A DNA stretch of 64,000 bases from the IMG/VR virus record IMGVR_UViG_3300020122_000155, positions 32,001 through 96,000 of that record, one strand, 5' to 3'. Positions within the stretch are counted from its first letter, which is position 1; every line of letters begins with the position of its first letter. The notes under the pieces were generated by a model that saw nothing but the letters and a program-made list of their open reading frames with translations, was not told the origin of the DNA and made no database searches. The position numbers and the translations under genes are program-made. The stretch is from a virus. Below are positions 32,757 through 63,211 of the stretch, piece after piece.

Positions 32757-33028
32757 GACTCGCCCTGCTCGGCCTCTGGACCTCGGCGGCAATTTACGCT
32801 TGGTGGTTAATCTATCTTGAGGATGCTGACTCTGTACCTTCCTGGATTCAGCCAGTGATCGTGATGTTAGCCGTGTCGGGAGTCGCAGCGCTCCCCTTGG
32901 TTTGGTTCTGTTTTCTTATGGACTCACTGGGAACTTCGCTTGATCCCCGCTCGCCAGCACCGCGTTCCCGCTCGTCAAGTACTGCGTCTGGAGGAGATAA
33001 TCCCCTTGCCGCACATCCAGGCCGCTGA
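32753..33028 (+). CDS. Small two-TM membrane protein
   Basis: Two hydrophobic segments; converges on the late arm. Confidence 0.5.
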   Translation: MRLALLGLWTSAAIYAWWLIYLEDADSVPSWIQPVIVMLAVSGVAALPLVWFCFLMDSLGTSLDPRSPAPRSRSSSTASGGDNPLAAHPGR

Positions 33029-36000
33029 GCGAACAAGGACTGCTGGTGCAGGTGATCGTCGTCTGTGCCCCGTTGGGAGCCGTGAGGATCGCCCGGAACT
33101 TCGCCGCCCCGCTCACGCCCGATAACGAGAAGCTGATCGGATAGGTCTTCAGGTTCGCGGGCTGCACCGGGCTCAAGCACGGGAAGCTCGCGCAAGTCCT
33201 AACCGCCTGATACGCGGGCTGCGTCGAGATTCCATCCATGAGCCCGTAATACTTTGGGCTGGCGACGTTACCAGGAACGGTCGCGTAGGACCCCGTGGGC
33301 GGATTGTAATCCGGTAATCCTCCTGAGTTCGTCCATGCCGCCCCGAATAGCGCATCCCCGAGAGTCTTGAAGCCAGTCGTACCCGACAGTCTATACGCCC
33401 ACGAGACGCCCCCGGCAGCTTCCTGCGCCGTCACACGTTCGCCGTAGGGCAAATTGCCGGAGTTACAGGGATACGGATTGGCGGATGGCGGCGAGCAGTT
33501 CACAAACCCCGCGCCCTGCCACACCCCCTGAGTCGCCGGGTTGTAGCCCACATTCGCGATCCAGTTGGCATTGTCCGAAGCGTACCCGGCCAGCAATCCC
33601 GACACCGTGTTGCTGCAATTCGTGGGCACCCCCGGCGAGGTACAAGCGGTCGCCAAGGACGCGATGGCAAAGCCTTCGGCCTCCAGCCCGCACATAAACG
33701 GCTGGCAGCCCCAACCGATATAGGGCACATCCGCGCCGCTGTTGAAGATCGCATATCCCTTGGCTCCTCCAGTCGTGCCTGAATAGTTCGCCGCGAGGTA
33801 CAGATTCGAATTCCCGGCCTTGTTGGATGCGAACGTTGCGGTGAACGTGGAGCCGGTTACCCCGGATGCTGTGACCAACTCGGTGTTGCTCCCATCCGCG
33901 TTCTGGCTGATGAGCGACACGCCGTTGGTGATCCCGGCCATGCTCGCGGGAGTGACTGTGCGAATGCCAGCTGTGATCGAAGCTGAAATGGTCGTTGGCG
34001 TTCCCGTTCCGAGGATCAGGTGCGTCGCGTCCTTGAACACTGGGATGTAGAACGCGGAATCCCCGACAGCATTGTTTGCCGGTCGCGTTCCGGGAGTTGG
34101 GAACATCCAAATCGTAGAAGTTGGTCCAAAGTTTCCGAAAGTTGTGCTTGTTCCCGTCACGTTAGGCGATCCGTTCACCACGCTCACCGAGGAGCCCGAG
34201 CCCCAGGAATTGCTGGTCCAGTAGAGAATCGGGAAATATGGGAATGCCCCATCCGCAGTATCTCTGGAGTTGGTAATGGCGTTATTCGTCACGTCCACCA
34301 ACGCTTGTCGGCATGTATTCGCGTAGGAGTTCGGATCAAACAAGGCACACTGCGCGACCCGGATCATGGCATAACCGAACTCTCTTTGATCGGTGTATAG
34401 ATCGGCGATCTGAGTCAATCCCGCCTGGGTCAGCTTCGCGATGTCCGTTCCGAACACGTACTCCAACCCGGTCCAATAGGAAGGCTGTCCATCGAGCGCG
34501 CGAAGAATCACGCCGGAGAGACCCAAAAGCCGCGAGGAGACCTGTCGCCCGGTCCCGTTTATCCCCGATGGATCGATTGTGGTTGTATACTCATCTCCGA
34601 GGTTGATAGCTGGTTGCCGGAACCATCGATCAGCGCGCGCTCTTGCTTGAGTAAGATCCGCCGCAAGACCGCTCTTAAAAGCCTTGTAATAGTCACCCAA
34701 AATGTTATCGTAGTAGTTCCCGTTGTTCTGAAAACTGTTGTAAGTGGGCCATGCTTGATTGTCGAGAGCGTACTGGACCCCGGACGAGGTTGGGTATCTC
34801 CATGCGAGTCCATTGGCCTGCTCGATCACCATGGAAGTATCCGAGTTGCAGCCCAGGATATTCAGTTGGTTCCGAATCGTCGGAAATGCCGTATTGGGCG
34901 CAGGCGTTGCGCTCCACGGCATGATGGTCATGTTGTTCTGAGCGATGTTCGCCGTCGTATAAGTTCCGATCACAAACCCAAGGAGCGCGTAGGCATTGTT
35001 CGCCACGGTTTGAATGGCGAGCGATCCGCTACCTCCGGTCGTAGCAGTCCTGATCTGAACCAATAAGCCGTTATAGGTTGGTGCGGCAATCCCAGTGCCG
35101 CCAATTGCGGTTTGAATATCTGCCCCTATCTGTGCCGGATTACGTGATCCGGTCGTTAGATTTACAGTGATCGGAGAGCCACCGTCAAAGACCAATTTGA
35201 GAACGTTGTTACTGCCCGTCACGGTGTACGTGTCGGCTGTGTGGATTCCGGCAGATATAGATGCCACGGCTCCTGCTTGCGCTGTCGGTTCTGTTGTTCC
35301 GCAAGCGCTTGTGAGGAATGTCGTTCCGCTCCCGACAAGGACGTATGAATTTTGAGTTGCCGTAACCGTTCCGGCTTGTGCGTAATCAAAAAATGCGATT
35401 CCGTTCTGGAAGACCGATCCGCCATTTATCGAGGAAGTCTGAAAGTCCTGTGCCCGAAGACTCTGCTGGAGTCCGTGGAGCGTGTCGAATAACGGCCAAT
35501 TAGCAACGGGACTCATCCACTTCTGGAGCGGCCCAAGCATGATGTCCGTGGCGGAGTTTGCGGGCAACGCCGCGCTGTTAATGGCGATATCGTTGGCATC
35601 GGTAGCCACCGTACCCATGTGCTGAGCAAGAACTCCAGTAGTTGGCGTCGCATCCGTAACGCTGAGTTGGAGGGTATAGTCCCCGGCAGTGAGCCCGTTC
35701 ACCGTCGCACTTGCGGAGGTCCGCCCGGTTACAATCGGTGGCGCGATTGGATAAGAGAGAAATTGCCAGAACTGATTGGGTATCGACGAGCTAGCATCCG
35801 CCTGAGTGAACGAGGAGGATGAAGATACGGTCTGAGGGTTTCCTGCCCTCCATGTAGTCTGGGAAAGCGTAATTACCGGAATCGGATTTTGATAAAGCGT
35901 GGTGCAATAGCTCGTAGCGGTAGACCCACACGTCCCGGACGGCGTTGATGCGTCCGACATAACCGCTGTCCAACCGTTCCCCGAGGCATCAGTAAACGAT

Positions 36001-36596
36001 CCATCGAATTTCCAGTGAACAAACCATGAGCCGGAGTTCAGCGGTCCAACATCTGCCGTTGCGGGCATCCTGGAATGCGGAGGAATCAGCGTGGTCCCGA
36101 AGCGGAAAAAATGGAACCGCTGAGTGGAAGTGTTTCCATTCTGAGCTAAGTAAATTCCGGCACTGTTCGATCCGGTAAAGCTAGTATATGCCTGTGCTTC
36201 AAAAAACTGCTCGACATTGTTTATGTCCCACGCCTCGCAGTAATCGGTCTTCGCCGTGCCAACCGAACCAGTATCATCGTGCATCAGGCGGACGTAGGCA
36301 TACCCGTTCACAAAGGATGCTATCGGGATGTCGCACACTCCCGGCCCCACGTCGCGAAGAAACGCGATGCGAATGTACGCGCCGCTGGAATAGTCTAGTT
36401 CTATTCCTATAGCGTTCAATTCCGCAAGCGCACCGCTTCCTGGGCTAGTGATGTCCGATAGTTCAAACTCGGCGATGATCGCCTGGGAAGTCGTCTGCGC
36501 GGTGATGGAGCCGTTTTCCACGCGCACATTGGATAGCTTAATGCCCTGTCCGGCGAAGGCTAAGGCGGAAGCCAGTAGGCCGAGTATAGTCTTCAT
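32916..36596 (-). CDS. Large signal-peptide fibre/adhesin-like protein (PKD/LamG-like segments)
   Basis: MKTILGLLASALAFA signal; HWKFDG..DASGNG; GLTAGDYTLQLSVTD. Confidence 0.75.
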   Translation of the reverse strand: MKTILGLLASALAFAGQGIKLSNVRVENGSITAQTTSQAIIAEFELSDITSPGSGALAELNAIGIELDYSSGAYIRIAFLRDVGPGVCDIPIASFVNGYAYVRLMHDDTGSVGTAKTDYCEAWDINNVEQFFEAQAYTSFTGSNSAGIYLAQNGNTSTQRFHFFRFGTTLIPPHSRMPATADVGPLNSGSWFVHWKFDGSFTDASGNGWTAVMSDASTPSGTCGSTATSYCTTLYQNPIPVITLSQTTWRAGNPQTVSSSSSFTQADASSSIPNQFWQFLSYPIAPPIVTGRTSASATVNGLTAGDYTLQLSVTDATPTTGVLAQHMGTVATDANDIAINSAALPANSATDIMLGPLQKWMSPVANWPLFDTLHGLQQSLRAQDFQTSSINGGSVFQNGIAFFDYAQAGTVTATQNSYVLVGSGTTFLTSACGTTEPTAQAGAVASISAGIHTADTYTVTGSNNVLKLVFDGGSPITVNLTTGSRNPAQIGADIQTAIGGTGIAAPTYNGLLVQIRTATTGGSGSLAIQTVANNAYALLGFVIGTYTTANIAQNNMTIMPWSATPAPNTAFPTIRNQLNILGCNSDTSMVIEQANGLAWRYPTSSGVQYALDNQAWPTYNSFQNNGNYYDNILGDYYKAFKSGLAADLTQARARADRWFRQPAINLGDEYTTTIDPSGINGTGRQVSSRLLGLSGVILRALDGQPSYWTGLEYVFGTDIAKLTQAGLTQIADLYTDQREFGYAMIRVAQCALFDPNSYANTCRQALVDVTNNAITNSRDTADGAFPYFPILYWTSNSWGSGSSVSVVNGSPNVTGTSTTFGNFGPTSTIWMFPTPGTRPANNAVGDSAFYIPVFKDATHLILGTGTPTTISASITAGIRTVTPASMAGITNGVSLISQNADGSNTELVTASGVTGSTFTATFASNKAGNSNLYLAANYSGTTGGAKGYAIFNSGADVPYIGWGCQPFMCGLEAEGFAIASLATACTSPGVPTNCSNTVSGLLAGYASDNANWIANVGYNPATQGVWQGAGFVNCSPPSANPYPCNSGNLPYGERVTAQEAAGGVSWAYRLSGTTGFKTLGDALFGAAWTNSGGLPDYNPPTGSYATVPGNVASPKYYGLMDGISTQPAYQAVRTCASFPCLSPVQPANLKTYPISFSLSGVSGAAKFRAILTAPNGAQTTITCTSSPCSLSGLDVRQGDYLLQTQYLTSGNAVLASGDQAKFPVSP

Positions 36597-37708
36597 AGTT
36601 GGGTCATCCTAAGATGACTGATGGGATTGTTCCCCGTCGATGAGTTGAAATCAATGCGAAATATCGTGGTAGCAAAATTGAAAGTTTGTGTCTGGTGCGA
36701 TAGCGGCCAAAAGTTAACCCCGGCATTCGCAGACCATACCGAGCCCCAAGCATCTGCGAGACTAGCCGAGCCTATGGTTACTGAAATTGTGAAGAGCGCA
36801 GTGGTTGTGTCCTTTAGCGTGATGTTTGGAACTGACGGATTTGCAGGATCTCCAAAGGCTCCATCGATTTTCCAATATCCAGCGGCGGGTAAATCACAAC
36901 GCCACGTTGCGGTAGTGCTGGCTGCAAGGTAACTCATACCTTGCAGCCGGTTGTCGCCACTGAGGTTATTGGCTCGATTTACAGAGGCTACCGATGCTCC
37001 GCCCGTTTCCCATCCGCATACCATCGACTGATTATTGGCATTTGTGAATATGTGAGGATAGGCCATTGTTCCCAGGGTAGTTTGGTCTGTAGCATAGACC
37101 GCAAAGCCCTCTTCTCTAACAGTTCCTCCGGGTCCTCCTCCGAGGGTCGCGCTGGAACGGAAGTCGAACCCAAAGTCCAACTTTGTTCCACCCACGCTTC
37201 CATTGGAAGCCGCCGTGATCCGGCCTTTGGCGTCCACTGTCAGGTTGGTGCTGGTATAACTCCCTGGAGTAACAGCAGTGTTCGCCAGCGTAATCGCCTG
37301 CGATCCACTGCCGGGTCCTGCCGTAGCGTCTCCAGTAAGCTGAGTGATCCCGCTGCCACTCGTCTGCGGGTTTTGAAGCTGGAATTGAGTGCCATCTGGG
37401 ATGACGCACATCCATGTACTCGCCTTGATATCATTAGCGACTAGCGCGACCGTTCCATTTTTAGTGATAGCAGTAGCCGTCAACGTCCCGTTTGGGGTCG
37501 TAATGGCCAAAGTTGGAGCCGCTCCCGTATTCGCTGCGCTTGCCTTCCAGCACACTTGCGGTTGGCCGGATGACAGCGAATAAGGCTGCGTGATGGTTAC
37601 AGTCTGCGCTTGAGCGGTGCCGCCACCTGTGCCATAGAAAGAAATTAGGCCGGGAGTGGATTGTGCTAACGCCAACGACGAAGCGATCAAAAAGAGTATG
37701 GTCTTCAT
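36593..37708 (-). CDS. Signal-peptide tail-fibre-like protein
   Basis: MKTILFLIASSLALA signal; LTGDAT...VTPGSYT...TVDAKGRITAASNG fibre repeat. Confidence 0.8.
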   Translation of the reverse strand: MKTILFLIASSLALAQSTPGLISFYGTGGGTAQAQTVTITQPYSLSSGQPQVCWKASAANTGAAPTLAITTPNGTLTATAITKNGTVALVANDIKASTWMCVIPDGTQFQLQNPQTSGSGITQLTGDATAGPGSGSQAITLANTAVTPGSYTSTNLTVDAKGRITAASNGSVGGTKLDFGFDFRSSATLGGGPGGTVREEGFAVYATDQTTLGTMAYPHIFTNANNQSMVCGWETGGASVASVNRANNLSGDNRLQGMSYLAASTTATWRCDLPAAGYWKIDGAFGDPANPSVPNITLKDTTTALFTISVTIGSASLADAWGSVWSANAGVNFWPLSHQTQTFNFATTIFRIDFNSSTGNNPISHLRMTQL

Positions 37709-37711
37709 AAA

Positions 37712-40700
37712 TTATTTAGCGACGGCAGAACCTAGAACCTTTCCGCTTCCAAGGCGCACGCTTCCGCCGCCTGTCACCGAGCCAGATAATGGTGTAAACG
37801 CCGAACCATTCCATGCCCTTGCATAGAGTTGCTGAGTGCTGGAACCCCAGTCCTGTTCGTTAAATGCAACCACTGGCTGAGAATTGTAGTAGGCAAGAGA
37901 AGCCCGCTGAACGGACCCGTAAAGAGCATCAGCGTTAAATGCAGTCCCCAGAAGCGCCCAGGAGGAAGTGAATTTCGCCACATATCCCTGAGCCCGTTCT
38001 TCTGAGGGCTCCCCGCTTACATAAGCATGAGGAGGTTGATATTCCACCCAAGCAACATATAGATTCGTACCGTCGCTTGCAATAGACGGATGAAAGGCCC
38101 AACCATTGCCGTTCGGGTCCTGGTTAATCGATCCGCTCCCGACCGTCGCCCACGCCCCGGCTGATACTTTTCGCACCCAAAGTTGGGCATTCCCGGCGAG
38201 CGTTCGTTCGGTAAAGGCTACATATGGCGTCCCGGAGACATAGATCAGCGACGGGTCGATGGCGTAGTTGTTTGCGTTTACATTTGCGATTCCTCCGCCC
38301 TGCACTGTCCATGCCGAACTGATATAGCAGGAAAGATGAACCTTGGCTTGCCCTGAGGTGATCAGATCGCCATTATCGACCGTATAGTCGGCCCAAGTCA
38401 CGCATGGGTGTGTTCCGTCGCTTGCAATTGCGTAATTCGGAGAGGCGGCGGTTCCGGTTGCATTTAGCGCTCCGCTGCCGACAAGCGTCCAGGCGCTTCC
38501 ACTCCAGGAGTATACAAAAATTTGGTTGTGCGACGGCGGGGAGTTAGCTGTCGGAGTTTCAAACGTGGCCGCATAGGCCGTTCCACCAACGTCGGTAAAT
38601 TGAATCCCTCCAGCACCTCCTGTCGAACTGGATTCGATCGCGAATGGTGCCGCGCAGTTCACACTAAAAGACGTACCGCTCGCTTGTGTCGCGAAGAGTA
38701 ATCGGTTATTGCCCTGCGTTCCGTAGGTTCCCAGCCACCACACACCGCCAGCATAGGCAATTGTGGAATTATGCCACAGTCCGCCAGTCCCGCAGGAGCC
38801 GCTGAATGTAACCGTCCATGTTGTCCATGAAGATCCATTCCAAGAGTCAACATATGATGTGGGAAACGGGGTTTGCGCGCCGACGTTAAATGGATCAGAT
38901 AATTCGGAGCGGGATATATTGAGCAAGCTGTTGCCCGTCGAGGTCATAGGCTTCTGAGCCCAACCGTTCGTTGTAGTGGTTCGCGATCCCGTCTGCACTT
39001 CACTAACGAACGGATTGACGGCACTGACGATATTTCCTCCAACCGCTCCAGGAGAAGCGCCGAGGGTGATGCCAGGAGACGGTCCGGTGCCTCCGTAACG
39101 ATAGAAATAGGTTGCTGCAAAATTCTGGCTGGCGGTAAAGGACGGCGAGTCGGCGTAGAACGCACACGACCCCGTGTTGCATGGAGGACTCACCAGGATG
39201 TGTATGTTGTGAACCGGATCATACGTCATGCCTTCCCACGGTGCGGCTGTATATACACTGGGCGTTGTCCCGCTGGGACTAAGCTGCGTCCACGCTGGAG
39301 AGGCGAGATTCATTGCCCAAAGATCCGTTACTATGCCGGTGCCACTGGATTCTCCGCAACTGCTTGCCTGACCTGCGCAGGCCCCACCGAATAAAAGCAG
39401 CACGTTATTGGTCGTGTCAATATCAATAGCTGCCCAACCGCGCCCGCTTGGAGGCGTGCCTGTTGGTTGAAGTTGTGTCCACGTCCAAGTGCTTGCCGAG
39501 TAGCACAGCTTGTATAACCCGTTTAAAAAATTCCCAGCGCCGGTAGTTCCGCCAAACAGATATCCACATCCGTCGCCGGAATTGTAAGCGGTGGCCGTTG
39601 AGAATAGCAATCCAGGATCGGCATCGCAAGCACCGCCCCCAGCTTTGGTGCAGGCTGGAGATTGAGAAGTCCATGTATTTGACGTGATATTCCAGTTCCA
39701 CACGCCACGACCGCCAGTCATCATCGTATAGGCTCCGTAACTGGGAATGAATTGAGACGATGGTTCAGCCGGGCGATCCGGGGATACGGTCGCTCCACTG
39801 GTCGAAAATGTTTGCTTCTCCAGACCTATTTGTGATCCGAGATCGTAAAGCCAAGTGCGGTAAATCCCCTCAAATCCACTTGACCCGGAACCACAACACC
39901 AGCCCTCATGTGTATGGTTTGCGGTGTCGTAAGTTAACCAGAATCCGTCCTGGTGTCCGCTCTCCGGGAAGTGCTCATCGTGGTATGGCTCTGTACGTGC
40001 CATAAGCATCCAGTTGTTTAGTTCGTAATCATAGGCGAACACCGCATTGTTTGCTTCGCTATTCGCATCGTGATAGTTGCCCCAAAAGATGAGCTTGCTT
40101 AGATCTGGATTCCATGTTTGCTTGGTCCAGCCAGGATTTCCGATGGGGACGCCATGGGTTTGCATCGTGTACCAAGTATTATTGGCGAGAGACGCCCACG
40201 CCTTGACCATGAAGTTCGCTGCGGTAAGATTTGTCTGTCCTCCGCAAGCGCTCGATGCTACGGTGATGGTCTGCGTGGTGCCGCTGGGGGCCGGGAGGCC
40301 GGTTACTTCCGTAGCCGCCCACCAGTTCTGCTGTGTCGCGGGGTTTCCAATCCAGGTATTAGTGCCGGGGTCGAACCCGATGTTCTCGACCAAGGAAAGA
40401 GCGCTGGATGTAGCGCATTTCAGACGGTAAGCCGTGGCACCAGGGGGGACGTTAATGTTCACACTATAGGTCGTGGTCCCGGTAACGCTTGTGATTTTGG
40501 CCAGCACGAGAGACTGTCCCGATGTGGCTGGTGCTGCCGTCCCGACGTTCGCGATCACATTTAGCACCTGTGCGAACTGGTAATTGTTGAAGTCGTCAAC
40601 GTTTCCGTCCGCCAAGACCCGTTGATAGGCCGTGAGAAACTTGTCCTTCCAGATCGAGACGGACCCATTGTAGAGGTTCTGGAAATAGTATCGATTCACG

Positions 40701-43381: not shown

Positions 43382-44157
43382 GGCTTGTAAGCGGCGATGA
43401 CGCCATAGACAGAGGTATTACCTGTCGTCGTTCCGGCAGCGGTAAATGTTCCAGAACTGGTAGCAATCTGGTGCCAAGTCACCATCTCATGAGCGCCACC
43501 ATCAGTGACGGTATTATCTAGACCAAAAGGAGCTGTGACAGTGTAGGTATTAGAGAAGGCAAGCTGGTGTGAGAATCCAAGAACTAGATCATTAGAAACA
43601 GCAGCGGAATTGCTAGGGCCAATTGACCAGCCGAACGGACTACTACCGCTGACGGCCACGCCGAAGTCAAGTGCGGCCCCATCTGGTGCACAGTGATTGG
43701 TGCCGCAGGTATATTCGCCAACTTCAGCAACAGTATAGGTGGTGCCACCCGTAAACGTTATCGTGATCGCATGGCTTGTTCCACCGCTGATATTGGAAGC
43801 TCGATAAATTGCTCCTGTTCCCTGTGCTCCTGCATTGCTGGCAGGGCCATAATCCGTTACCCAGGTATTACAGGGAGAAGCACACCCAGTATGCGTATCC
43901 GCAATCGACCAAGGGAGTTTCGCGCTTGGATCTGACGAGTTGTAGTAATCCACGATCTTAATGATGATCGTATTCCCGGAGGTCGTAGAACTGCCGAATG
44001 TCAAAGTGATTGACGCTGCGGGGAAGGTGTTGCCAGTCTGAAGTTGCACCTGAGTAATGGACCCGCCGCCTCCACCCAATACATTCCCGCCCGGACCGGG
44101 AATGCGAACCTGTGCAAATACAGATAAACAGATGATCAATCCTAGGATAATCCTCAT
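43378..44157 (-). CDS. Signal-peptide fibre-tip-like protein
   Basis: MRIILGLIICLSVFA-QVRIPGPGG; T/G/S-rich beta sequence. Confidence 0.7.
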   Translation of the reverse strand: MRIILGLIICLSVFAQVRIPGPGGNVLGGGGGSITQVQLQTGNTFPAASITLTFGSSTTSGNTIIIKIVDYYNSSDPSAKLPWSIADTHTGCASPCNTWVTDYGPASNAGAQGTGAIYRASNISGGTSHAITITFTGGTTYTVAEVGEYTCGTNHCAPDGAALDFGVAVSGSSPFGWSIGPSNSAAVSNDLVLGFSHQLAFSNTYTVTAPFGLDNTVTDGGAHEMVTWHQIATSSGTFTAAGTTTGNTSVYGVIAAYKP

Positions 44158-44159
44158 AG

Positions 44160-47100
44160 CTAGTTCACCGTGTAGACGACATGAACAACGAAAAACTTTG
44201 CCGTCCCGCCTGGAGTTCCGCTTACGAGTTCAAGATAGTCGCCTGCGTTAAGACCTGTATTTTGTAGTGTAGCGGAGCAGGTCGTCGCACCATTTATGCC
44301 TGTTGTTCCACCCGTATTGGAGCAGGCAATCCCGCCACTAGCCGCCGTTGCAAGGGCCGAGGAGACGATGTTTACTATCGTACCGGCACGGTTTCTACCC
44401 ACAATCACGTTGGGCGTCCCCGCGTCTGCGTTCACGTCCATCTCAACGATGGTCGCTGCGGCGGGGATAAAGCATACACGGGACTGGGGTCCCATCTGGC
44501 CGGAAGTGATTGCACTTCCCGATGTGTCATTGATTGGGATGTCGCAAACCCGGCGCGTATTGACCACGGCCATTTTTGAAGAGGAGACGGCATTGGCCGC
44601 AATCGTTGTCGCAACGCTTCCGCTAGTCGTAACATCTCCTGTGAGATTTCCAACAGCTCCGGTTTGGGTGAAGACGCTCGTAACTGGCGCGCCTGGAATC
44701 CACGCCGCCACATTGGTACTCGTGATCGTCGGAGCGCCCGTCGTTGTACTCCATGTCGCTACCACATCGAGTGCCTGCGTTGCCGTCGTGTCGATGGTCC
44801 AGGTTGAACTGGTCTGCATCGCCGCTTCTCCCGGCGTCAGTGTGGAACCAGTCCCTTCAAAGATACAGTTAGCAATCTGTGTTCCGCTTGCACCAGAGGT
44901 GCGTGTGGTTACCGCACAGCGAAGCCTCCAAACTCCGTTGGTGACAGAAGCGATCTGAACCACTGCGCCCGTCGTAATTCGCGGCGTTCCCCCGATGCTG
45001 AGGGCAATCGTCAGACTGGCCGGGGTCGCAGGAGTCGAGGAGAAGCCCTGCGCCACAAATTCAAGCACCTGCCCCGCCGTGAAGGTGTTCGCGGGAACCG
45101 TGGTCGAACCTGTTACGGTGCCGATCAGCGTGGTAGGGCTTGTGGCCGTTACGGTCGTGGAGTTCGTAGTCGAAAACAGGGTTGCGCCTGCCGTACCGCT
45201 TCCGCCCGATCCGCAAGCTGCTCCCGCTGTATCCAACTTGTAGTTTGACCCGCTCACAGTCCATTTCGCGCAATCGCCATTCCCAGGGGTGACTGTGAAC
45301 TGGGGGATTTTTGCATCCGCGCTCGATTGTGCCGCGTGGAGCATGTTATTGGTCGAATCGTAACCGATCCCGCCGTTAACGGCAGTTGTCAATCCAGCAC
45401 CTACTGGAATCTTGAGAGCGCTCGCTGCCGTGGACGCGCTCATGTCTAGAGTCATCGCAGCCGCGCCCGAGTTCGTGGTGTCTTTACGAACTACGTTCGA
45501 TGCTAAGAATCCAGCATCAGCGGGAACGTTGGACGCCCCAAACGAGACGAGATCACCGTTTGTCCCGGAGAATGTTCCGCCGTTTAGCTTAGTGCAAGTC
45601 AACGTGAAGGAACTGCTTGCGCAATCACCACTGAGTTCTGCGGGGGTGGATTGCGTCTCTACGTTCGAGGAATTGGTAACACGGAAGAAACCCGTGCCTG
45701 CAACACCAGCTAGATCTAGCCTATAGGCCGTAACTGAGGTGGGGGCCTCGATAACAATGCTGTTCGCTCCCGGAGTGCTCGCAGTGCCCTGGTTGAATTG
45801 GGTTCCGCCAGCTACGCCAGAACCAGAACCCGTGGTCAAGGTTCCCGGAGTGGAGATGTTCCCGCTGCCGTCCATTGTGGCCGTCGCGGAGGGGGTCTGG
45901 ATGGTCGTAGTTCCCCCGCCCGTCACAAGGGCCGTGCTGGTGAGTGAACCTGCGCCGACTACGGTGACAGTGCCAGAGCCAGTCGGAGTCGCGCACGCAC
46001 CGTCTCCACGTAGGAAAGTGCTACTGGAGCAGGTCCCCGACCACAGCCCATAAACGTCTGACGCCGCCGCGTCCGAGATCGCTCCAGTGGTAGTAGTGTT
46101 CTTGACGATGCCGGTTCCGAGGGTGGCCCAATTTTGATTCGAACTCCCCAAAGTGAGCGTGGCGGTATTTGCAACTCCGGTGCCCCCTTGTCCGGGGGTG
46201 ACAGCGGCATTCGTCGTCAATACCGTTGTCGATGCGTTGGGAAACGTATACGTCTTGGCCGAGGTAGCAGGTCCAGACACGGTGAAGAACGCATTTGCCG
46301 TTCCCCCATTGGCTGTCGGTAGGATGCCGGTCACCTTGGTCGTCAGATCAATAGTGGACGCGGCGATGTCGGCGTTCACTACCGAACCAAAAGCGGGATT
46401 ACCGGCTGCATTCCCATGCAGCAATGTAGTCGTAGTCCCCTGATTGGCGAATTGCGCTCCCGCAAGGGTGAGGGCAGTCCACGCAGCAGTTGTGGCGTTG
46501 CTCAGGAGCACGGTGTTGGCTGCGCCGATACCGAGCCGAGCGAGCGCCGGAGTTGCGTTGACCAGGAGGATGTCTCCTTGGGTAGTGAGAGGCGTATTAG
46601 CCAATGCCAGAGCGCCTGTGATTGTCGCTGCCGTGCCGGATGTGTTACCCGTCACATTGCCAGTCAGGTTTCCGCTGAAAGTGCCCGTGGTCGTTCCGGG
46701 GAGCGTGGGGCTGGTAGGAATTGATAGGGTGATTGCCCCGGTAGAAGCCGATGCTGTAATTTGATTCGCTGTGCCAGTGATAGTAGTTGGAAGTGCCGTA
46801 CAGGTTTCCGAGTTACCGGAAGCATCCACACCTAGGGGGAATTGACCAGCCGAACAATTCGTTCCATTCGCCGCCAAAGCCGTCGCTGTCGTCGCCGCGA
46901 TAGTACCGCTGCCCGACACTGCGAGGGATGCACCTGTACCTACGACCATTGCGGCTGTTGTATTAGTGGAGCCTGTAATGGCTGAGAAAGCATTTGATCC
47001 GCCGCCCGCACACGCAGATCCAGTGGCTAGACAGATTGCTCCCGAACCTGATACAGCCGTTCCTAGCGCCGTTGCTACGCCCGTCCCTAGCCCCGAGACT

Positions 47101-48230
47101 CCAGTGCTGATTGGCAATCCAGTGCCATTTGCCAGAGTAATCGTAGGTGCCGTTCCGAAGACCAAGGCCCCGGTTCCTGTTTCGTCCGTAACTGCCGCTG
47201 CTAGATTTGCGCTTGTCGGTGTCGCAAGGAAGGTACCTATCCCGGTTCCCATCCCTGATATGCCACTAACCGGCACAGCCGTAGCCGTGATTGCTCCGCT
47301 GCCAGTAGCGGCAAGGGACGCCCCGGTTCCGACCACCATTGCCGCCGTGGTGTTCGTAGAACTGGTAAGCGCGGAAAACGCACCCCCCGAATACTGGGGG
47401 ATATTCAGCGTGTTGGTGGCCTGGGTCCAGGTAGCTGCCCCACTAGAACCCGTTGTCGTCAGCGTAATTGGCAATTTTGTAAGATTAGAAGCATCTCCGC
47501 TTACTGGAGTTCCGAGCGCCGGAGCGATGAGGGTAGGCCCATTTGCAAAGACGAGTGCCCCCGTACCAGTCTCACCGGTTACGCAGGCGGCAAGATTTGC
47601 GCTCGATGGGGTTATCAGCCACGTCACGCAGCCAGTTCCTATCCCGGACACTCCGGTACTGATCGGAAGCCCAGTAAGGAGTGCCGCATCTACGGCTGGT
47701 AGTTGCGCCGATCCATTTAGCTGAACCAGATTGTTCGCGCCTGTTCCGACCGTATACGAGGTTCCCCACGCGGCCCCGGTTGAATTGGCGATGCCAGAGC
47801 CAGGATAAACCGTGGGACCCGCTGGGCCGGTAGCTCCGGCTGGGCCAGTTGCGCCCGCCCCACCGTTGCTATTCACGTTGCAGTAGGCGTTCGAAACGCT
47901 GGATGCGAGCGTGACAGTCAGAGTCGCGATTGGTGTTGCCGCCGTGTAGGTATAGGAAGACACGCCCACCGATGTTTTGGTAGCGCCCGTCCCTGTGTAG
48001 CAGAGTATCTGCGCCGATGTGATCGTGGAAGCGGTAAGATTCAGCGTCGATAATGCTGGAGTCGCTGTTGCATCCACGACTACCGATGTGCCTGGACCGG
48101 CAACTGTGGCAGAAACCACATTGAGCGCCCCGACGCCGACTCCGCCGCCAGACGGAGGCGTAATTGTCTGCGCCCTTAGCGCGAAGGAAAAGGGGATAAT
48201 CAATAGTAAGCGTTTTAGCATAATTGTCAT
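44160..48230 (-). CDS. Signal-peptide tail-fibre protein with a short collagen-like stretch and internal repeats
   Basis: GATGPAGATGPAGP; repeated TPxSANLAA.VT.ETGTGALVF and FSA.T.STNTTAAMVVGTGASLA. Confidence 0.85.
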   Translation of the reverse strand: MTIMLKRLLLIIPFSFALRAQTITPPSGGGVGVGALNVVSATVAGPGTSVVVDATATPALSTLNLTASTITSAQILCYTGTGATKTSVGVSSYTYTAATPIATLTVTLASSVSNAYCNVNSNGGAGATGPAGATGPAGPTVYPGSGIANSTGAAWGTSYTVGTGANNLVQLNGSAQLPAVDAALLTGLPISTGVSGIGTGCVTWLITPSSANLAACVTGETGTGALVFANGPTLIAPALGTPVSGDASNLTKLPITLTTTGSSGAATWTQATNTLNIPQYSGGAFSALTSSTNTTAAMVVGTGASLAATGSGAITATAVPVSGISGMGTGIGTFLATPTSANLAAAVTDETGTGALVFGTAPTITLANGTGLPISTGVSGLGTGVATALGTAVSGSGAICLATGSACAGGGSNAFSAITGSTNTTAAMVVGTGASLAVSGSGTIAATTATALAANGTNCSAGQFPLGVDASGNSETCTALPTTITGTANQITASASTGAITLSIPTSPTLPGTTTGTFSGNLTGNVTGNTSGTAATITGALALANTPLTTQGDILLVNATPALARLGIGAANTVLLSNATTAAWTALTLAGAQFANQGTTTTLLHGNAAGNPAFGSVVNADIAASTIDLTTKVTGILPTANGGTANAFFTVSGPATSAKTYTFPNASTTVLTTNAAVTPGQGGTGVANTATLTLGSSNQNWATLGTGIVKNTTTTGAISDAAASDVYGLWSGTCSSSTFLRGDGACATPTGSGTVTVVGAGSLTSTALVTGGGTTTIQTPSATATMDGSGNISTPGTLTTGSGSGVAGGTQFNQGTASTPGANSIVIEAPTSVTAYRLDLAGVAGTGFFRVTNSSNVETQSTPAELSGDCASSSFTLTCTKLNGGTFSGTNGDLVSFGASNVPADAGFLASNVVRKDTTNSGAAAMTLDMSASTAASALKIPVGAGLTTAVNGGIGYDSTNNMLHAAQSSADAKIPQFTVTPGNGDCAKWTVSGSNYKLDTAGAACGSGGSGTAGATLFSTTNSTTVTATSPTTLIGTVTGSTTVPANTFTAGQVLEFVAQGFSSTPATPASLTIALSIGGTPRITTGAVVQIASVTNGVWRLRCAVTTRTSGASGTQIANCIFEGTGSTLTPGEAAMQTSSTWTIDTTATQALDVVATWSTTTGAPTITSTNVAAWIPGAPVTSVFTQTGAVGNLTGDVTTSGSVATTIAANAVSSSKMAVVNTRRVCDIPINDTSGSAITSGQMGPQSRVCFIPAAATIVEMDVNADAGTPNVIVGRNRAGTIVNIVSSALATAASGGIACSNTGGTTGINGATTCSATLQNTGLNAGDYLELVSGTPGGTAKFFVVHVVYTVN

Positions 48231-49777
48231 CGGGTTACACTCTTGCCACGAATTGTCACCTTCCCTCTAAGTTGTAGGTTTGCAGATGGAGGTAACGTCC
48301 ACCCCGCGCCCCCATTCCAAAGCGTATCGCGATCAGCCGACGTAGCAGCAACGCTGGCAATCCCGTTTTCGTCGATAATACACAGGCATTGTTGCGCAGC
48401 GCCAACGCCATTCCCGCTGTGTTTGTTGGAACCTACCCAAAAAGGCAACGTAGAGGCGGCTGGGGTCAAGCCACTTAATACATGAGAACAAGATGCCGCT
48501 CCATGATCCAGATCGAGATGCAGAGTTTGGGCTGGCTGATCGAACCACACTATAACGAGATGGAAGCCTGTCGTATCAGTGAAAGGCACCGAGCAGTCTT
48601 GAAAACTGCCCGCATTGTTACCCATCAGGAAAAATAGATTACCTCCGGCGAGTTGCACCAGCCAATCTATATTGGTATTGTTCTGATCGTAGAACCCCTC
48701 TATTGTCTGAGTGGGGCTCGTGTTCTGACTCTTTAACCAGAACCACGCAGTCTTAGAGTTGTTGCCAAACGTAAGATCTGAGGAATTGGGAGCCTGCACG
48801 CTCGAAACCGGCTGATTGTCCCAGGCTGCTACCCCATTATTGGCATATGGTCCCGGAGCCGCGACGAACTGCGCCCCGTTCGCGATTTTAGCCGCGACCG
48901 CCCCCGGTTGCACATTTCGCGCGAAAGTAAAGCTAGTCCCATTGTTCACGGATGCGCTCATGATGGAGGTCGTCGCGTTGAACTGAGAGGCGATAAAGTA
49001 CCACGTCCCCGTGCCGGGGGCCGTTCCAGCACCAATAGGCAATACGCCGTTTGCGTATAGCCCATTGTCATTCCCGAGATCAATATTGAAGTTGTCGCTT
49101 GTCCCTTGGTAGTACAGAATTTCGCCCGTTCGAGGAGTGCCGGAAAGAGTAATCTGACCCCAGATGATCGATTGCCCCCCGGATGGCTTCGTGTGCAAGT
49201 TGACCCAGCATCCGACGCTAAACGTGAAGTTCCCGCTCTGTAAATCAGCCGTGGGCGGATTGGCTTCAAGAAATGCGCCGGGTGTTAGCTGAGTGCCATT
49301 GCCGACCCCGAGCGGCCCAGTTACCTGCGTCGTAGTGCCGGATCGCGTGAGTGTGTTTCCCCGGCCCGTTGCATCGGCATACGTTGCAGAGTTGCTGGAT
49401 TCGTTAAGCAGAAAATAAGCTACGGCATCCTGCAAACTGGTAGTGGTAGAGAATGGCCACTTTTCACCCCCGGCGAGCGCTGCGAGTTCGGTTGGTGTGA
49501 ACGCCCGATTCCACTTGCCACAATTGGCCAAGCTACCGTCGAGGTTTTGGGAGACGCCGCCCGAGTTGGCTCCAAGCCGGAAGGGAAGAGTGGAAGCAAC
49601 CGCCCGCTGATCTGGATTCACCGTCAGCGTATGCCCGCGTCCCGTAGAGTCGGCATACGTATTCAGGACAGCTAGGCTTGCCGGAGCGGATTCATCATAC
49701 TTCCAATAGGCGGTGATATTCGATGTAATTTGTGCAAACATCGGCACAGCCAATAGGAAGGTTATTAGACGTTTCAT
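48227..49777 (-). CDS. Signal-peptide LamG/concanavalin-like protein
   Basis: AYWKYDE / AYFLLNE..ADATGRGNTLT repeats; W.N, GTWY, IDE motifs. Confidence 0.8.
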   Translation of the reverse strand: MKRLITFLLAVPMFAQITSNITAYWKYDESAPASLAVLNTYADSTGRGHTLTVNPDQRAVASTLPFRLGANSGGVSQNLDGSLANCGKWNRAFTPTELAALAGGEKWPFSTTTSLQDAVAYFLLNESSNSATYADATGRGNTLTRSGTTTQVTGPLGVGNGTQLTPGAFLEANPPTADLQSGNFTFSVGCWVNLHTKPSGGQSIIWGQITLSGTPRTGEILYYQGTSDNFNIDLGNDNGLYANGVLPIGAGTAPGTGTWYFIASQFNATTSIMSASVNNGTSFTFARNVQPGAVAAKIANGAQFVAAPGPYANNGVAAWDNQPVSSVQAPNSSDLTFGNNSKTAWFWLKSQNTSPTQTIEGFYDQNNTNIDWLVQLAGGNLFFLMGNNAGSFQDCSVPFTDTTGFHLVIVWFDQPAQTLHLDLDHGAASCSHVLSGLTPAASTLPFWVGSNKHSGNGVGAAQQCLCIIDENGIASVAATSADRDTLWNGGAGWTLPPSANLQLRGKVTIRGKSVTR

Positions 49778-49781
49778 TTGT

Positions 49782-51317
49782 TTATGGAGTTGAAGTTACT
49801 AGCAACATCCGATTTGAGACCGTTTCGGTGCCCGATGCGAACAAGCAATGTTGCACCTTGATGGTATGGCTACCAGAGGCTAGGCTAGCCGCATACGTAG
49901 ACTGACAAGCGGTAATGAAGTTGGCGTTGTTTTGGTCGCACTTTGTCAAAGTAGCCGAAACCAGGGAGCCATCCACGTTGAACTGGTTTTGCACTTCCGC
50001 GCCATTCTGATTTACCGAGAAAGAATAAAGGAATTGCGCCGCGATATTGGTAGTAGCTGAAAGCGTAAAGGTAACGCTATCTGGTGTGGTCAGGTCCACA
50101 AATGCCGTGCCACATAATGACGTGGTGGTCTGAGCCGTGGACACCCGTGAGACGCCGACCGGACCAAAGCCGCCGCCGCCGCCGCCCGTACCGGGATTGT
50201 TCACACTTGCAAAATAGTTTGTACCATCTGAAACCACGTAGGAATCCGAGGGAGCCGTAGCCGACGCCGCGTTTAGGGTCAGGCTTGCGGTTCCCCCATT
50301 GATATTCTGCCCGCTTCGCGCGATGGTGACGACGCCGCTACCGTAATTAACAACTTTAATGCACTGCCCTGAAGCCGGTTGAGAACCGGACGCCACCAAC
50401 GTAACCGTGAACGTCCCCGATGCTATGGTGATCGTTTTGCAACCAACAAAATCCGCCGCGAGTACCTGATAAGTGCCCGTTTGGGCATTAGGGGCAAATA
50501 ATACTACGGCACCGGTAGCCGTGTTCACGCTAGTAACAGGAGTTGCACCGCCAGAGACGGGCGTACATGTAAGCACATGAGAAACGTAGGTTAGGGCATG
50601 AGCGCCATCACCCGCACATGCTGGAACCGCCTGCGTACCCGGAACCGCCGTTCCCGCCGTGAAGTTGCCAAAGATATTATCCGCCGAAATACTGGCCAAG
50701 CCACCAGCGGGCAACCCAGTGCCCAATGACAAATCAATCGTCGGAGCCGTGGCCCTCACCACATTTCCGGTACCCGTAAATCCCACTTGTGTAAGCGCCA
50801 CGGTATTCCCCGTGGCTGTGCCCAATACGAATCCAGTAGCCGCCACGGATGGCCCTACCCACTGAAACGAAGTAGCAATGGAAGCATTCGCATAGATCGA
50901 CCAAGCGTTTGCTGGGAACGTCCCCGGACCGGTGCCCTGAACCATATCTATTGCACCAGCCGCGCTACTTCCGACACCGCTACTAAGCGAACTAGGGCAC
51001 GCGAATGCACCAGCCGTAAAAGTGCATCCCGTAAAGAAATTGGTCGTCGCCACACTCGAAGAGGCGTCACCGGGAGAAGGCGTAGGGGCCTTCAGCGTGG
51101 TCAACCCGGAAAGATCGATCAAGTTGAGACCTAAATTTACCACTGTATTAGCCACGCTTCCAATGGTGGTGCTCCCCGTATAGACGGCCAACTGTGTTAC
51201 CGTTCCTGGCGAAACCGTACCACTCCCGCTTCCGCTCCCGCCAGATGGCGGCGTAATCCTCTGCGCGCGCAAGGCGACAACAAACACGAGCAGCGGTAAA
51301 AGTTTTAAGATTTTCAT
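49782..51317 (-). CDS. Signal-peptide tail-fibre protein
   Basis: APTPSPGD.S..VATT.F and VTSVN..TGAV.L fibre motifs. Confidence 0.8.
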   Translation of the reverse strand: MKILKLLPLLVFVVALRAQRITPPSGGSGSGSGTVSPGTVTQLAVYTGSTTIGSVANTVVNLGLNLIDLSGLTTLKAPTPSPGDASSSVATTNFFTGCTFTAGAFACPSSLSSGVGSSAAGAIDMVQGTGPGTFPANAWSIYANASIATSFQWVGPSVAATGFVLGTATGNTVALTQVGFTGTGNVVRATAPTIDLSLGTGLPAGGLASISADNIFGNFTAGTAVPGTQAVPACAGDGAHALTYVSHVLTCTPVSGGATPVTSVNTATGAVVLFAPNAQTGTYQVLAADFVGCKTITIASGTFTVTLVASGSQPASGQCIKVVNYGSGVVTIARSGQNINGGTASLTLNAASATAPSDSYVVSDGTNYFASVNNPGTGGGGGGFGPVGVSRVSTAQTTTSLCGTAFVDLTTPDSVTFTLSATTNIAAQFLYSFSVNQNGAEVQNQFNVDGSLVSATLTKCDQNNANFITACQSTYAASLASGSHTIKVQHCLFASGTETVSNRMLLVTSTP

Positions 51318-51319
51318 TA

Positions 51320-51796
51320 TTACTTGTCTTCGATCTTGACGGCCTCTGTTTTCGCCACGGCATCCGTTGGATGCTTGGGGGTCGCCGGTAGAATTTCCGT
51401 CGAAGTTGATGCGGATGCGGTCTTGCGCAACACAGCACCAGTTACTAGCGTTAAGAACGCTCCCTCCAGGTTGTTGATTAGACCATTCACAAACTGCAAC
51501 TGCGTGGTATCGCCGCCGTGATGAAGGATATGCAGGTTATAGGACAGCAGCAACGCCCACACGAAGACCACCAAGTATTTGTCGGAACTATCGCGGAACC
51601 ACATTCCCCAGAGCGGTTCACTCGGCTTGCTCACTATGACCGTGGAACTCGTTGGCGCTGCCGATAAGGGCGATGCTGGCAGAGCCGGTGGAGTTTTTCG
51701 TCGAAAACAGATGATCCACCACGCCAAAAAAGCGACCAACAAAACCGCCTGTAGCCACTTAGCTACCCATTCGTACTCTTTAAAAAAGTTCATCAT
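51320..51796 (-). CDS. Holin-like membrane protein (3 TM)
   Basis: Three hydrophobic segments, charged C terminus, close to the endolysin gene. Confidence 0.55.
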   Translation of the reverse strand: MMNFFKEYEWVAKWLQAVLLVAFLAWWIICFRRKTPPALPASPLSAAPTSSTVIVSKPSEPLWGMWFRDSSDKYLVVFVWALLLSYNLHILHHGGDTTQLQFVNGLINNLEGAFLTLVTGAVLRKTASASTSTEILPATPKHPTDAVAKTEAVKIEDK

Positions 51797-51840
51797 AGAG
51801 TAATTAGCTCGCGCTCTCGGACGGTGCCATTGTTTTCATT

Positions 51841-51869
51841 TTGATTTTGGTCCCTTTCGTGCTTACAAT
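51841..51869 (+). promoter_or_regulatory. Promoter TTGATT-17-TACAAT for the antisense membrane gene
   Basis: Hexamers 9 nt upstream of ATG 51879. Confidence 0.65.
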
Positions 51870-51878
51870 CCTAGACAG

Positions 51879-52556
51879 ATGCCAACGCTTAGCCTGTCTG
51901 TTCTGCCGCTGATTTTTTCGCAGTTGACGATAGCGCTCCTGTTCCGCGCAATTCGTTGGAACATACCAATAATCGGCTATCCCGCCTTTTTTGTTATGAT
52001 TGCGTTCTTGGCGCTGCGATCCGTGGCATGGTTTGTCGCCCCATATTCGATCATCACCGATTTGTGGACGTGGTTCCCGATGGTGCAACTATTGGTAGTT
52101 CAGGAATCACTTTGGCAGACGGCTCCGTGGATTCTGGAGCTTGAAGCGCGCCCCTACATCTATACTTTTTGCTGGGCGGTCGGTGCTTTTTTCTCGTTCC
52201 TTGTCGCGGACTATGGCTGGCACTGCCGGATCGAAATGGCGATGACCATGGCTCTCGTGGCGAGCTTGCTCTTGCTGCTTGTCACGGGAGGGCACCACCT
52301 TACGAGCGACCGTTTCATCTGGCACCAGACGTTTTTGATCATGTACACCGCCGCGTGCATGATGCCGAACCTCATTCCAAACTGGTTCGACAGCACGGCG
52401 CTAACGCAGATGATCCAGATCGTTAGCCTTGTCGGTTTCCACTGGAATCTCGAAGTTTTTGAACGATCCGATCTTCGATGTCCTCTAACTCGTTTCGATG
52501 CTCCAGCCCGGAAATCCGTTGTCTTACCTGTTCGAGTTGCGACCCAACACGATTGA
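51879..52556 (+). CDS. Polytopic (about 7 TM) membrane protein, antisense within the lysis region
   Basis: Alternating hydrophobic helices; has its own promoter. Confidence 0.75.
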   Translation: MPTLSLSVLPLIFSQLTIALLFRAIRWNIPIIGYPAFFVMIAFLALRSVAWFVAPYSIITDLWTWFPMVQLLVVQESLWQTAPWILELEARPYIYTFCWAVGAFFSFLVADYGWHCRIEMAMTMALVASLLLLLVTGGHHLTSDRFIWHQTFLIMYTAACMMPNLIPNWFDSTALTQMIQIVSLVGFHWNLEVFERSDLRCPLTRFDAPARKSVVLPVRVATQHD

Positions 52557-52758
52557 ATCCAGCTTTCGTTTCCTGAGAGTGCTTCTCTAGCGACTCCTGA
52601 ATCTGCCGGAGTCGGCTCTTGCGGTAAAAGTTGAGTTTCAGGAAGCTGAGAATCGCAATGACGGCAGCGGATATCGCCCCAACTTTGTCAATATCCGGTG
52701 TCGTGTGGTTTGGATCTGGTGTCACCATTAGCGCATCAACTTCCTGTGGAGTCATCAA
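52423..52758 (-). CDS. One-TM plus coiled-coil protein (holin-like)
   Basis: TM segment followed by a heptad region; AAGGAG SD. Confidence 0.55.
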   Translation of the reverse strand: MMTPQEVDALMVTPDPNHTTPDIDKVGAISAAVIAILSFLKLNFYRKSRLRQIQESLEKHSQETKAGFNRVGSQLEQVRQRISGLEHRNELEDIEDRIVQKLRDSSGNRQG

Positions 52759-52765
52759 TCTCCTT

Positions 52766-52936
52766 TCACTTCGCGAACAGCTTGTGACTGAGGACCGTCG
52801 CCACCAGCGTCTTGATGTCCGCTGGCGTCAATTGCATATTCGCCTCGTCAAGAAGTGCGAGGATGCCTTTCGTGATTCTTGCGGATGCTCCGTCTCCGCC
52901 TGGACCTCCAGGGGGGATCGGTGGGGGTGATGCCAT
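52766..52936 (-). CDS. Small hypothetical protein
   Basis: Manual translation MASPPPIPPGGPGGDGASARITKGILALLDEAN...; AAGGAG SD. Confidence 0.5.
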   Translation of the reverse strand: MASPPPIPPGGPGGDGASARITKGILALLDEANMQLTPADIKTLVATVLSHKLFAK

Positions 52937-60608: not shown

Positions 60609-60627
60609 TTATTTTGTTTTCCCCAAT

Positions 60628-60658
60628 AAAAATGGCCGCGATATTACTCGCGACCATT
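60628..60658 (-). terminator. Intrinsic terminator-like hairpin
   Basis: Minus strand TGGTCGCGA-GTAATA-TCGCGGCCA-TTTTT. Confidence 0.6.
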
Positions 60659-60762
60659 ACCATGCCTATGGCTAACCACGGCTAACCCAAACTCACCAAG
60701 GCATCAACTCGCCTCAGCTTGGCTTGCCGCCAACGTTAGCATGCCACACTTTGATCCAAAAG

Positions 60763-63183: not shown

Positions 63184-63211
63184 TTTTGGAAGACTCCTTT
63201 TTAACGAACGC

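Follow-up and report, generated by a model that had tools for sequence, protein, structure and literature searches.

The 64,000-nucleotide stretch of viral DNA described here, in the following called the window, spans positions 32001-96000 of one 105,065-bp contig (IMG/VR record IMGVR_UViG_3300020122_000155). Between positions 32916 and 51317 its minus strand carries seven open reading frames (ORFs), arranged without gaps over about 18 kb (17% of the genome), which encode fibre-, lectin- and enzyme-like proteins. All seven begin with a Sec-type signal peptide, as claimed in a preliminary description of the DNA. Both the anatomy of the N-termini and its conservation in relatives bear the claim out, and at the level of sequence these N-termini are confirmed as Sec/signal-peptidase-I-type signals. 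Export, cleavage and periplasmic disulfide formation are predicted for the seven proteins, and are very probable. Tentatively, and with a confidence slightly short of even, we propose that tailed phages of Acidobacteriota follow a two-compartment assembly, in which the whole receptor-binding complex would be Sec-exported, trimmed, N-terminally blocked and disulfide-locked, and would dock on the particles once the holin has breached the inner membrane. The components of this scheme, tail fibres or depolymerases and Sec signals, are of known kinds, their combination is not described, and a literature search found no published account of signal-bearing tail fibres in tailed phages.

Signal peptides and cysteine pairs

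The preliminary description had placed the seven ORFs correctly, and the N-termini it quoted correspond letter for letter to the translations. All genes lie on the minus strand and are numbered from the 51317 end of the block. Gene 1 (511 amino acids, 49782-51317) has its signal at residues 1-18 (nucleotides 51264-51317), gene 2 (516 amino acids, 48227-49777) at residues 1-15 (49733-49777), and gene 3 (1356 amino acids, 44160-48230) at residues 1-20 (48171-48230). In the four remaining genes the signal covers residues 1-15: gene 4 (259 amino acids, 43378-44157; signal 44113-44157), gene 5 (1889 amino acids, 37712-43381; signal 43337-43381), gene 6 (371 amino acids, 36593-37708; signal 37664-37708) and gene 7, the last of the block (1226 amino acids, 32916-36596; signal 36552-36596).

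The seven N-termini are built alike. One or two Lys/Arg residues are found within the first 2-7 positions, no acidic residue precedes the cleavage site, and an uncharged h-region of 12-13 residues reaches a mean hydropathy of 2.5-3.5 over its best 9-residue window. Ala occupies position -1 of the predicted site in every protein, and position -3 is filled by Ala or Val or, least typically, by Leu (genes 1 and 3) or Met (gene 2). The residue after the site is glutamine (Gln) in five of the seven proteins (genes 1, 2, 3, 4 and 6) and Ala in gene 5; in gene 7 the site is followed by Gly-Gln. In the AlphaFold model of gene 1 residues 7-16 form a separate helix. Lipoproteins were rejected, as none of the proteins has cysteine (Cys) at +1, and so were uncleaved signal anchors, the h-regions being too short for a membrane span. 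As to further sorting signals, the Pfam results include no C-terminal domain family of the type IX secretion system, and the translations show neither a PEP-CTERM tail nor a lipobox. Signals were called, both in the genome and in the counts of homologues given below, by a crude home-made rule that stood in for a trained predictor. The rule flags 10 of the 139 candidate ORFs of the 105-kb genome, and seven of these are the consecutive genes of the block. Since only 3 of the other 132 are flagged, seven in a row are not a chance outcome.

Signals are maintained in relatives that have otherwise diverged. All 40 full-length homologues of gene 5 start with a signal, followed in most of them, after 2-3 residues, by a conserved mature N-terminus. 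Gene 7 has 17 homologues, and those aligned over most of their length have both a signal and an invariant Ala-Gly-Gln junction. The family of gene 1 was explored by an exhaustive profile-free search, which returned 532 representative clusters. Signal-like N-termini were found in 114 of the 137 listed representatives starting with Met (83%), and a small residue and then Gln follow the h-region in 105 of these 114 (~90%). Among the remaining representatives, several look like truncated calls, and the few with ordinary N-termini are mostly poor in Cys. In IMG/VR, the 38 complete ORFs carrying the gene 1 module all have the signal. Mature starts may be similar as well. Those of genes 1, 3 and 4 consist of Gln, two residues, Pro-Pro or Pro-Gly, and a run of Gly (51200-51263, 48110-48170 and 44050-44112, respectively), an arrangement recurring in 25 of the 114 signal-bearing relatives of gene 1. 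This shared start may be a flexible linker only, or a docking or sorting peptide made by signal peptidase.

The many closely spaced Cys pairs reported in the preliminary description held up in a random-placement test. Mature proteins 1 to 7 contain 10, 6, 20, 4, 31, 4 and 18 Cys, an even number in six of the seven. The median gap within pairs is 4.5-44 residues per protein, versus 55-130 residues between pairs, and none of 10,000 random placements reaches the combined pairing score observed. The 20 Cys of gene 3 make ten pairs, with gaps of 7-40 residues, set 50-257 residues apart (p = 0.0001); the 18 of gene 7 also lie in close pairs (p = 0.0004), and the four of gene 4 are tightly paired, the gap being 4 residues in one pair and 5 in the other. 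Within the gene 1 family, the mature Cys count is even in 103 of the 114 signal-bearing representatives, against about half expected by chance. Relatives lacking a signal, both in this family and among proteins sharing the motif of gene 6 described below, are poor in Cys. A signal which drifts in sequence and yet is kept, a fixed junction and an even-Cys rule are what is expected of proteins that are truly translocated, cut and oxidised.

Signal-like N-termini were noticed also in the region of the head genes. Between the terminase and the putative portal gene, outside the window (genome 11164-12348, minus strand), a 394-amino-acid protein has a signal peptide followed by Gln-Gln, and 10 mature Cys arranged in five close pairs. 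No family match was found for it; in a relative the protein is 99.5% identical, and its neighbour genes are 84-99% identical. An ORF of 192 amino acids (genome 10035-10613, minus strand) starts with Lys-Arg-Arg-Asn-Val-Phe before a hydrophobic stretch, by eye resembling a signal of the twin-arginine translocation (Tat) pathway.

Fibre modules, lectin-like domains and predicted enzymes

Pfam and PHROGs returned almost nothing for the seven proteins, and neither megablast of the block nor tblastn of genes 1 and 5 found a match in 50,697 phage records. A PDB sequence search with genes 3 and 7, and with two proteins of the tail region (883 and 728 amino acids), gave nothing useful. All products of the block have very few charged residues and abundant Thr, Ser, Gly and Asn. 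The phage fibre motifs that the preliminary description had mentioned correspond to modules in genes 1, 3 and 6. In gene 1 a Pro-Pro-x-Gly-Gly motif and its Gly/Ser linker come after the signal and the Gln, and lead to a body resembling fibres and to a beta-sandwich module. The conserved beta-sandwich (residues 279-376, nucleotides 50190-50483) is the only confident part of the whole-protein model, with a predicted local distance difference test (pLDDT) value of ~90. Its fold matches the capsid spike of Pa223 (Z 9.8), a baseplate chain of Klebsiella phage KP1 (Z 9.6), residues 87-181 of the CBA120 tailspike TSP4 (Z 9.2) and an Acinetobacter phage tailspike (Z 8.6); two further matches have Z values of 8.0 and 6.4, and all other rows are at 4.4 or below. 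The TSP4 region presumably helps to hold several spikes together, and is taken here as a lead only.

Gene 3 shares the Pro-Pro-x-Gly-Gly start of gene 1. Besides a short stretch of collagen-like sequence it contains a repeated fibre motif (residues 168-378, nucleotides 47097-47729), for which four phage records have segments of 57-62% identity. Among them is a structural-module protein of Pseudomonas phage PfAn1 (57% identity), which has no signal peptide. Gene 6 matches weakly phrog_38058, a 'tail fiber protein', and carries a motif of ~50 residues (124-174, nucleotides 37187-37339) common to ~1000 proteins, and found also in the annotated tail fibre of Pseudanabaena phage Pam2; the protein ends with a C-terminal domain that resembles no known fold. 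Among the 120 best relatives sharing the motif, signals are limited to 11; in the others the N-terminus is of the ordinary fibre type, and the Cys count is 0-3. Fibre segments are common to the block and to another phage in mosaic fashion, the usual behaviour of receptor-binding genes.

For genes 2, 4, 5 and 7 no homology to fibre modules was found, only a general likeness to carbohydrate-binding proteins or enzymes. Gene 2 looks like two LamG-type lectin domains, in two LamG/concanavalin-like halves. Neither Pfam nor PHROGs gave a match; feature matches in the protein atlas, at 0.97, are to Laminin_G_3 clusters, many of them viral, and are again a lead only. Gene 4, which also lacks matches in Pfam and PHROGs, consists of a Pro-Gly-Pro-Gly-Gly/Gly-run linker and a small body. 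Gene 5 carries a PcRGLX-like domain of polysaccharide-lyase type (PF21345, 42 bits against a cut-off of 23.5; residues 170-283, nucleotides 42533-42874), Kelch repeats at residues 1261-1375 (nucleotides 39257-39601), which are marginal in Pfam and match KLHDC2 chains in a PDB search, and a C-terminal repeat region. In gene 7, a weak PKD-like domain and a C-terminal beta-sandwich accompany a region (~residues 621-1142, nucleotides 33171-34736) that is probably similar to (alpha/alpha)6-toroid glycoside hydrolases. The best fold matches, with Z values of 13-14, borderline for helical folds, are to GH76, GH105, GH88 and epimerase toroids, and the confidence of the model, built for the C-terminal half, is low (pLDDT 53). 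The protein atlas had no usable match for gene 7.

The two enzyme-like families differ in where their relatives reside. In a collection of 185,579 species genomes the gene 5 family was matched eight times, each time in a metagenome-assembled genome (MAG) of Acidobacteriota (Bryobacteraceae, Acidobacteriaceae, Terriglobia). In the loci checked by Pfam, the chromosomal neighbours encode glycosyltransferases, a flippase, a polysaccharide deacetylase, an epimerase and an asparagine synthase, and by its predicted content the locus is an exopolysaccharide locus. Gene 5 itself lies in a phage late operon, and the exopolysaccharide context holds only for its chromosomal relatives. It would work like an exported glycanase of such loci, rather than as a member of the cellular set. 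In turn, families 1 and 7 belong in essence to phages: the former was not found in 301 sampled Acidobacteriota genomes, and the latter was found in one of 401. The gene 7 family is sparse also in IMG/VR, where only one distant locus was identified. As a separate observation, one contig of an Acidobacteriaceae MAG (~123.6-166 kb) contains two gene 5-like giants and a signal-bearing protein of 822 amino acids with segments similar to genes 1 and 3. This cluster adjoins polysaccharide genes and a ParA-like gene, and could be what is left of a phage fibre module, or else parts of this kind put to use by the cell.

The host of the phage is probably an acidobacterium (Terriglobia). A host among Bacteroidota, suggested by the Gln habit, was dropped, because the eight genome matches of the gene 5 family all lie in Acidobacteriota MAGs. 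The Q-rule, i.e. the occurrence of Gln after the signal peptidase I site, has been described in Bacteroidetes in a survey that did not include Acidobacteria (PMC5837995), and together with glutaminyl cyclase it stabilises exported proteins (PMC10653852). A glutaminyl cyclase (PF05096, E ~1e-95) is encoded in three of the five Acidobacteriota MAGs holding gene 5 relatives.

Phage genome, related loci and known systems

The contig begins and ends with the same 127 bases, so that the assembly circularises. The large terminase (genome 12698-15076, minus strand) matches phrog_38 (E 1e-101), and a co-directional module extends from it, across the contig junction, as far as window position 32916. The block shares one strand with the genes from the terminase to the ejection proteins, and closes the late operon. 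The rest of the genome is made of small phage-type genes. The source is the complete genome of an uncultured tailed phage of soil, and not an island of a bacterial genome. Sheath, tube and tape-measure proteins were not recognised in it, and the phage is probably short-tailed, or podovirus-like. A scan for promoters and terminators detected no more sites in the seven-gene block than in shuffled sequences.

A 158-amino-acid membrane protein (51320-51796, minus strand), with hydrophobic segments in its translation and no family match, adjoins gene 1, its stop lying 3 nucleotides ahead of the gene 1 start. It is a holin-like candidate, and would link the block to the late/lysis region. Further upstream, a 147-amino-acid protein (52936-53379, minus strand) has a Tlde1 (L,D-transpeptidase-like) domain, and small membrane and coiled-coil ORFs are located nearby (51320-52758). 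The Tlde1 protein, these ORFs and the 158-amino-acid membrane protein may form an unusual lysis cassette; a polytopic membrane ORF of 225 amino acids on the opposite strand (51879-52556) splits this neighbourhood. Five consecutive large proteins (382, 1263, 691, 611 and 223 amino acids) are encoded at 53597-63883 on the minus strand, and have no Cys at all. The 1263-amino-acid protein contains a ddrB-like ParB domain, the 382-amino-acid one a histidine-phosphatase domain, and the five look like the ejected internal virion proteins of short-tailed phages.

The same layout occurs elsewhere. In a phage of 106.7 kb from IMG/VR, Cys-free giants of 3151, 509 and 332 amino acids are followed, in the same order, by five or six large, Cys-rich, signal-bearing proteins. 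No terminase similarity to this phage was detectable, and the two phages are therefore not close kin. About 40 IMG/VR loci repeat the layout, and many of them have Cys-free giants in the same place. A cultured representative is also available. Tunturi_1 (PP887698), a phage of Tunturiibacter, of the Acidobacteriota, has been described as podovirus-like (Demina et al. 2025, PMC11924767), in a paper that mentions neither signal peptides nor virion proteomics. Signals and 10-32 Cys are found in its gp12, gp13, gp14 (annotated as tail spike), gp16 and gp17 (annotated as virion structural protein), and among the N-termini checked all large spike- or fibre-like proteins except gp31 have signals. In Tunturi_1 these large proteins lie in a run behind the tail protein gene, and their signals, of the type described here, end in Ala-Gln or Asn-Ala. 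In contrast, the genome of Tunturi_1 is 63 kb, the block comes before, and not after, the internal proteins, and the two proteomes have only HNH endonucleases in common. The signal-bearing trait tracks the host phylum, not one phage lineage.

Known systems resemble the block in part. Canonical fibres and tailspikes (CBA120 TSP4, PDB 7rej; Acinetobacter phage Solidus gp83; T7-type fibres; PfAn1) are alike in modules, genomic slot and mosaic evolution, but have no signal, few Cys and an N-terminal virion anchor, and fold in the cytoplasm; here an export signal is found at the position of the anchor. WceF of Pantoea stewartii is an exported glycanase of tailspike fold, encoded inside a polysaccharide biosynthesis cluster, which trims the polymer of the cell itself (PMC7949094). 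It is similar to the chromosomal relatives of gene 5 in its polysaccharide-locus context, and differs from gene 5 in being bacterial, exported by the Tat pathway and folded as a beta-helix, whereas gene 5 belongs to a phage, starts with a signal of Sec type and combines PcRGLX-like and Kelch regions. Q-rule substrates of Bacteroidetes share with the block the Gln after the cleavage site, though the host here is probably an acidobacterium. That phage proteins may be adapted to the export machinery of their host has been remarked on earlier: Q-rule signal proteins of unknown function have been noted in phages of Porphyromonas gingivalis (PMC10367356), but these are small, and do not form a fibre/spike set. 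About 5% of the carbohydrate-active enzymes encoded by prophages have signals (PMC13507307).

Export of phage proteins as such is not new: the literature search found Sec-exported phage lysis proteins on record. Endolysins of tailed phages, either secreted or of the signal-anchor-release type, use the host Sec machinery, and are not virion parts. The coat proteins pIII and pVIII of filamentous phages are exported before assembly, which takes place at the membrane during extrusion; tailed phages, in contrast, are assembled in the cytoplasm and leave the cell by lysis. Glycanases other than WceF, such as PslG and AlgL, are also encoded in exopolysaccharide loci.

The window contains other features of note. 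A tRNA with anticodon CTA, of the amber suppressor type, was identified by ARAGORN at 18210-18283 (plus strand); the long ORFs of the window are open under table 11, and wholesale recoding is not evident. At 21834-23000 (plus strand) a 388-amino-acid protein matches Acb3 (PF25187, E 1e-36), an inhibitor of the cyclic-oligonucleotide-based antiphage signalling system (CBASS), and an AAA ATPase adjoins it.

Assembly model and alternatives

According to the model that we favour, the last seven genes of the late operon would constitute a host-recognition set, made of the fibre-type genes 1, 3 and 6, the lectin-like gene 2, the small gene 4 and the sugar-cutting enzymes of genes 5 and 7, the latter targeting the host exopolysaccharide. 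Late in infection, precursors provided with a cleavable Sec signal would reach the periplasm, where signal peptidase I would cut them, in most cases exposing a Gln that the host glutaminyl cyclase can convert into pyroglutamate. Local disulfides, which the reducing cytoplasm could not make, would then lock the proteins. In the meantime DNA-filled particles devoid of fibres would be built in the cytoplasm. Once the holin had opened the inner membrane, both compartments would mix while the outer membrane is still closed, and fibres and spikes would dock on the tails, possibly as a branched complex held by the TSP4-like module of gene 1. Docking would be feasible because, between holin triggering and rupture of the outer membrane, particles and periplasmic proteins are confined together and concentrated. 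The docking element could speculatively be the N-terminus made by signal peptidase, or the TSP4-like module itself. Undocked protein would be released, and would loosen the surrounding polysaccharide. A likely benefit is that disulfides and a blocked N-terminus would harden virion parts for acidic soil.

The preliminary description had proposed that the phage exports its receptor-binding apparatus for oxidative folding, and either attaches it at or after lysis or uses it to decorate the host surface. Its part on export and oxidative folding has strong, if indirect, support in signal anatomy, conservation, paired Cys and the Gln at +1, the last taken together with the glutaminyl cyclase gene of the candidate host lineage; between virion attachment and surface decoration the sequence does not decide. 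We regard attachment of the exported proteins to the virion after holin action as an evenly balanced proposition. It is favoured by the fibre slot, by the virion-type modules of genes 1, 3 and 6, by the restriction of families to phages, by the investment of 17% of the genome and by the layout of Tunturi_1. Several points weigh against it. Export parts the proteins from the cytoplasmic site where particles are assembled, and we know of no precedent for docking after holin action. No family or structure match to a virion-anchoring N-terminal domain was found behind the signals of the seven proteins, and the signal occupies the place of the N-terminal domain of the signal-less relatives of gene 6. 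For gene 5, the nearest kin are secreted proteins encoded in chromosomal polysaccharide loci, and not proteins of virions. The 883-amino-acid protein of the tail region, which has no signal, shows a weak match of pectate-lyase type, below the Pfam cut-off, and could be the true tailspike, although PHROGs and the PDB sequence search lend this no other support. In addition, confidence is low over most of the gene 1 and gene 7 models, and every step after translation is deduced, not observed.

These points bring in a different fate for the proteins, which could be exported and never bound to the virion. They would act as free or envelope-associated late products, the enzymes thinning the host exopolysaccharide inside and around the cell, and the fibre- and lectin-like binders masking or destroying receptors, so that progeny escape matrix and debris and reach neighbours already stripped, with adsorption left to other, signal-less proteins of the virion. 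We hold this to be rather unlikely, though it is the most serious of the alternatives, given that all evidence of export fits it equally well. The WceF-like setting of the gene 5 relatives (PMC7949094), the lack of a recognisable anchoring domain and the existence of a signal-less candidate spike speak in its favour, and phage-encoded secreted proteins are known, both carbohydrate enzymes (PMC13507307) and the Q-rule proteins of Porphyromonas phages (PMC10367356). Yet 18 kb in the fibre slot would be a large outlay on non-structural proteins; the modules of genes 1, 3 and 6 are otherwise those of fibres and spikes of virions, families 1 and 7 hardly occur outside viral contigs, and in Tunturi_1 all the large spike- and fibre-like proteins checked, gp31 excepted, have signals.

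The signals could also be present and go unused during infection. If the phage blocked or saturated Sec, cytoplasmic precursors could be assembled conventionally and form disulfides after release, the hydrophobic N-terminus serving for membrane-proximal assembly or for delayed folding. The topological problem would then vanish; moreover, the signals are short (15-20 residues), and the sequence itself does not show actual translocation. However, cleavage-site features and the Gln at +1 are kept across hundreds of diverged homologues, which would be pointless unless signal peptidase and the machinery of the periplasm recognised them, and the strict even-Cys rule is the signature of disulfides made by enzymes in the periplasm. 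Furthermore, the homologues of gene 5 encoded by cells, whose signals are the same, are ordinary secreted proteins, and unused signals appear improbable. That the signals are artefacts of gene calling, with true starts located downstream, is scarcely credible. No Shine-Dalgarno motif precedes any of the seven annotated starts, as such an error might predict; but each of them is the first ATG of its own frame, placed 0-4 nucleotides from the preceding stop or overlapping it, as the ATG of gene 3 overlaps the stop of gene 2, and no convincing internal start, led by a Shine-Dalgarno motif, stands out in the seven genes. Homologues called independently in many sources begin with the same type of signal, and seven such N-termini in a row are beyond chance.

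In textbook accounts, assembly of tailed phages is wholly cytoplasmic. If the two-compartment model is true, a new branch in tailed-phage assembly would have to be added, in which the making of the virion includes a step needing host Sec, signal peptidase, disulfide-forming enzymes and perhaps glutaminyl cyclase, and lysis timing becomes part of morphogenesis. These host functions would be unrecognised determinants of phage susceptibility. In soil viromes, signal peptides could not serve to tell 'auxiliary secreted enzymes' and structural depolymerases apart, and the recombinant production of such receptor-binding proteins would need an oxidising compartment. With the Tunturi phages and their hosts in culture, the question can be put to a direct test, and the answer would concern a large, globally common group of soil phages.

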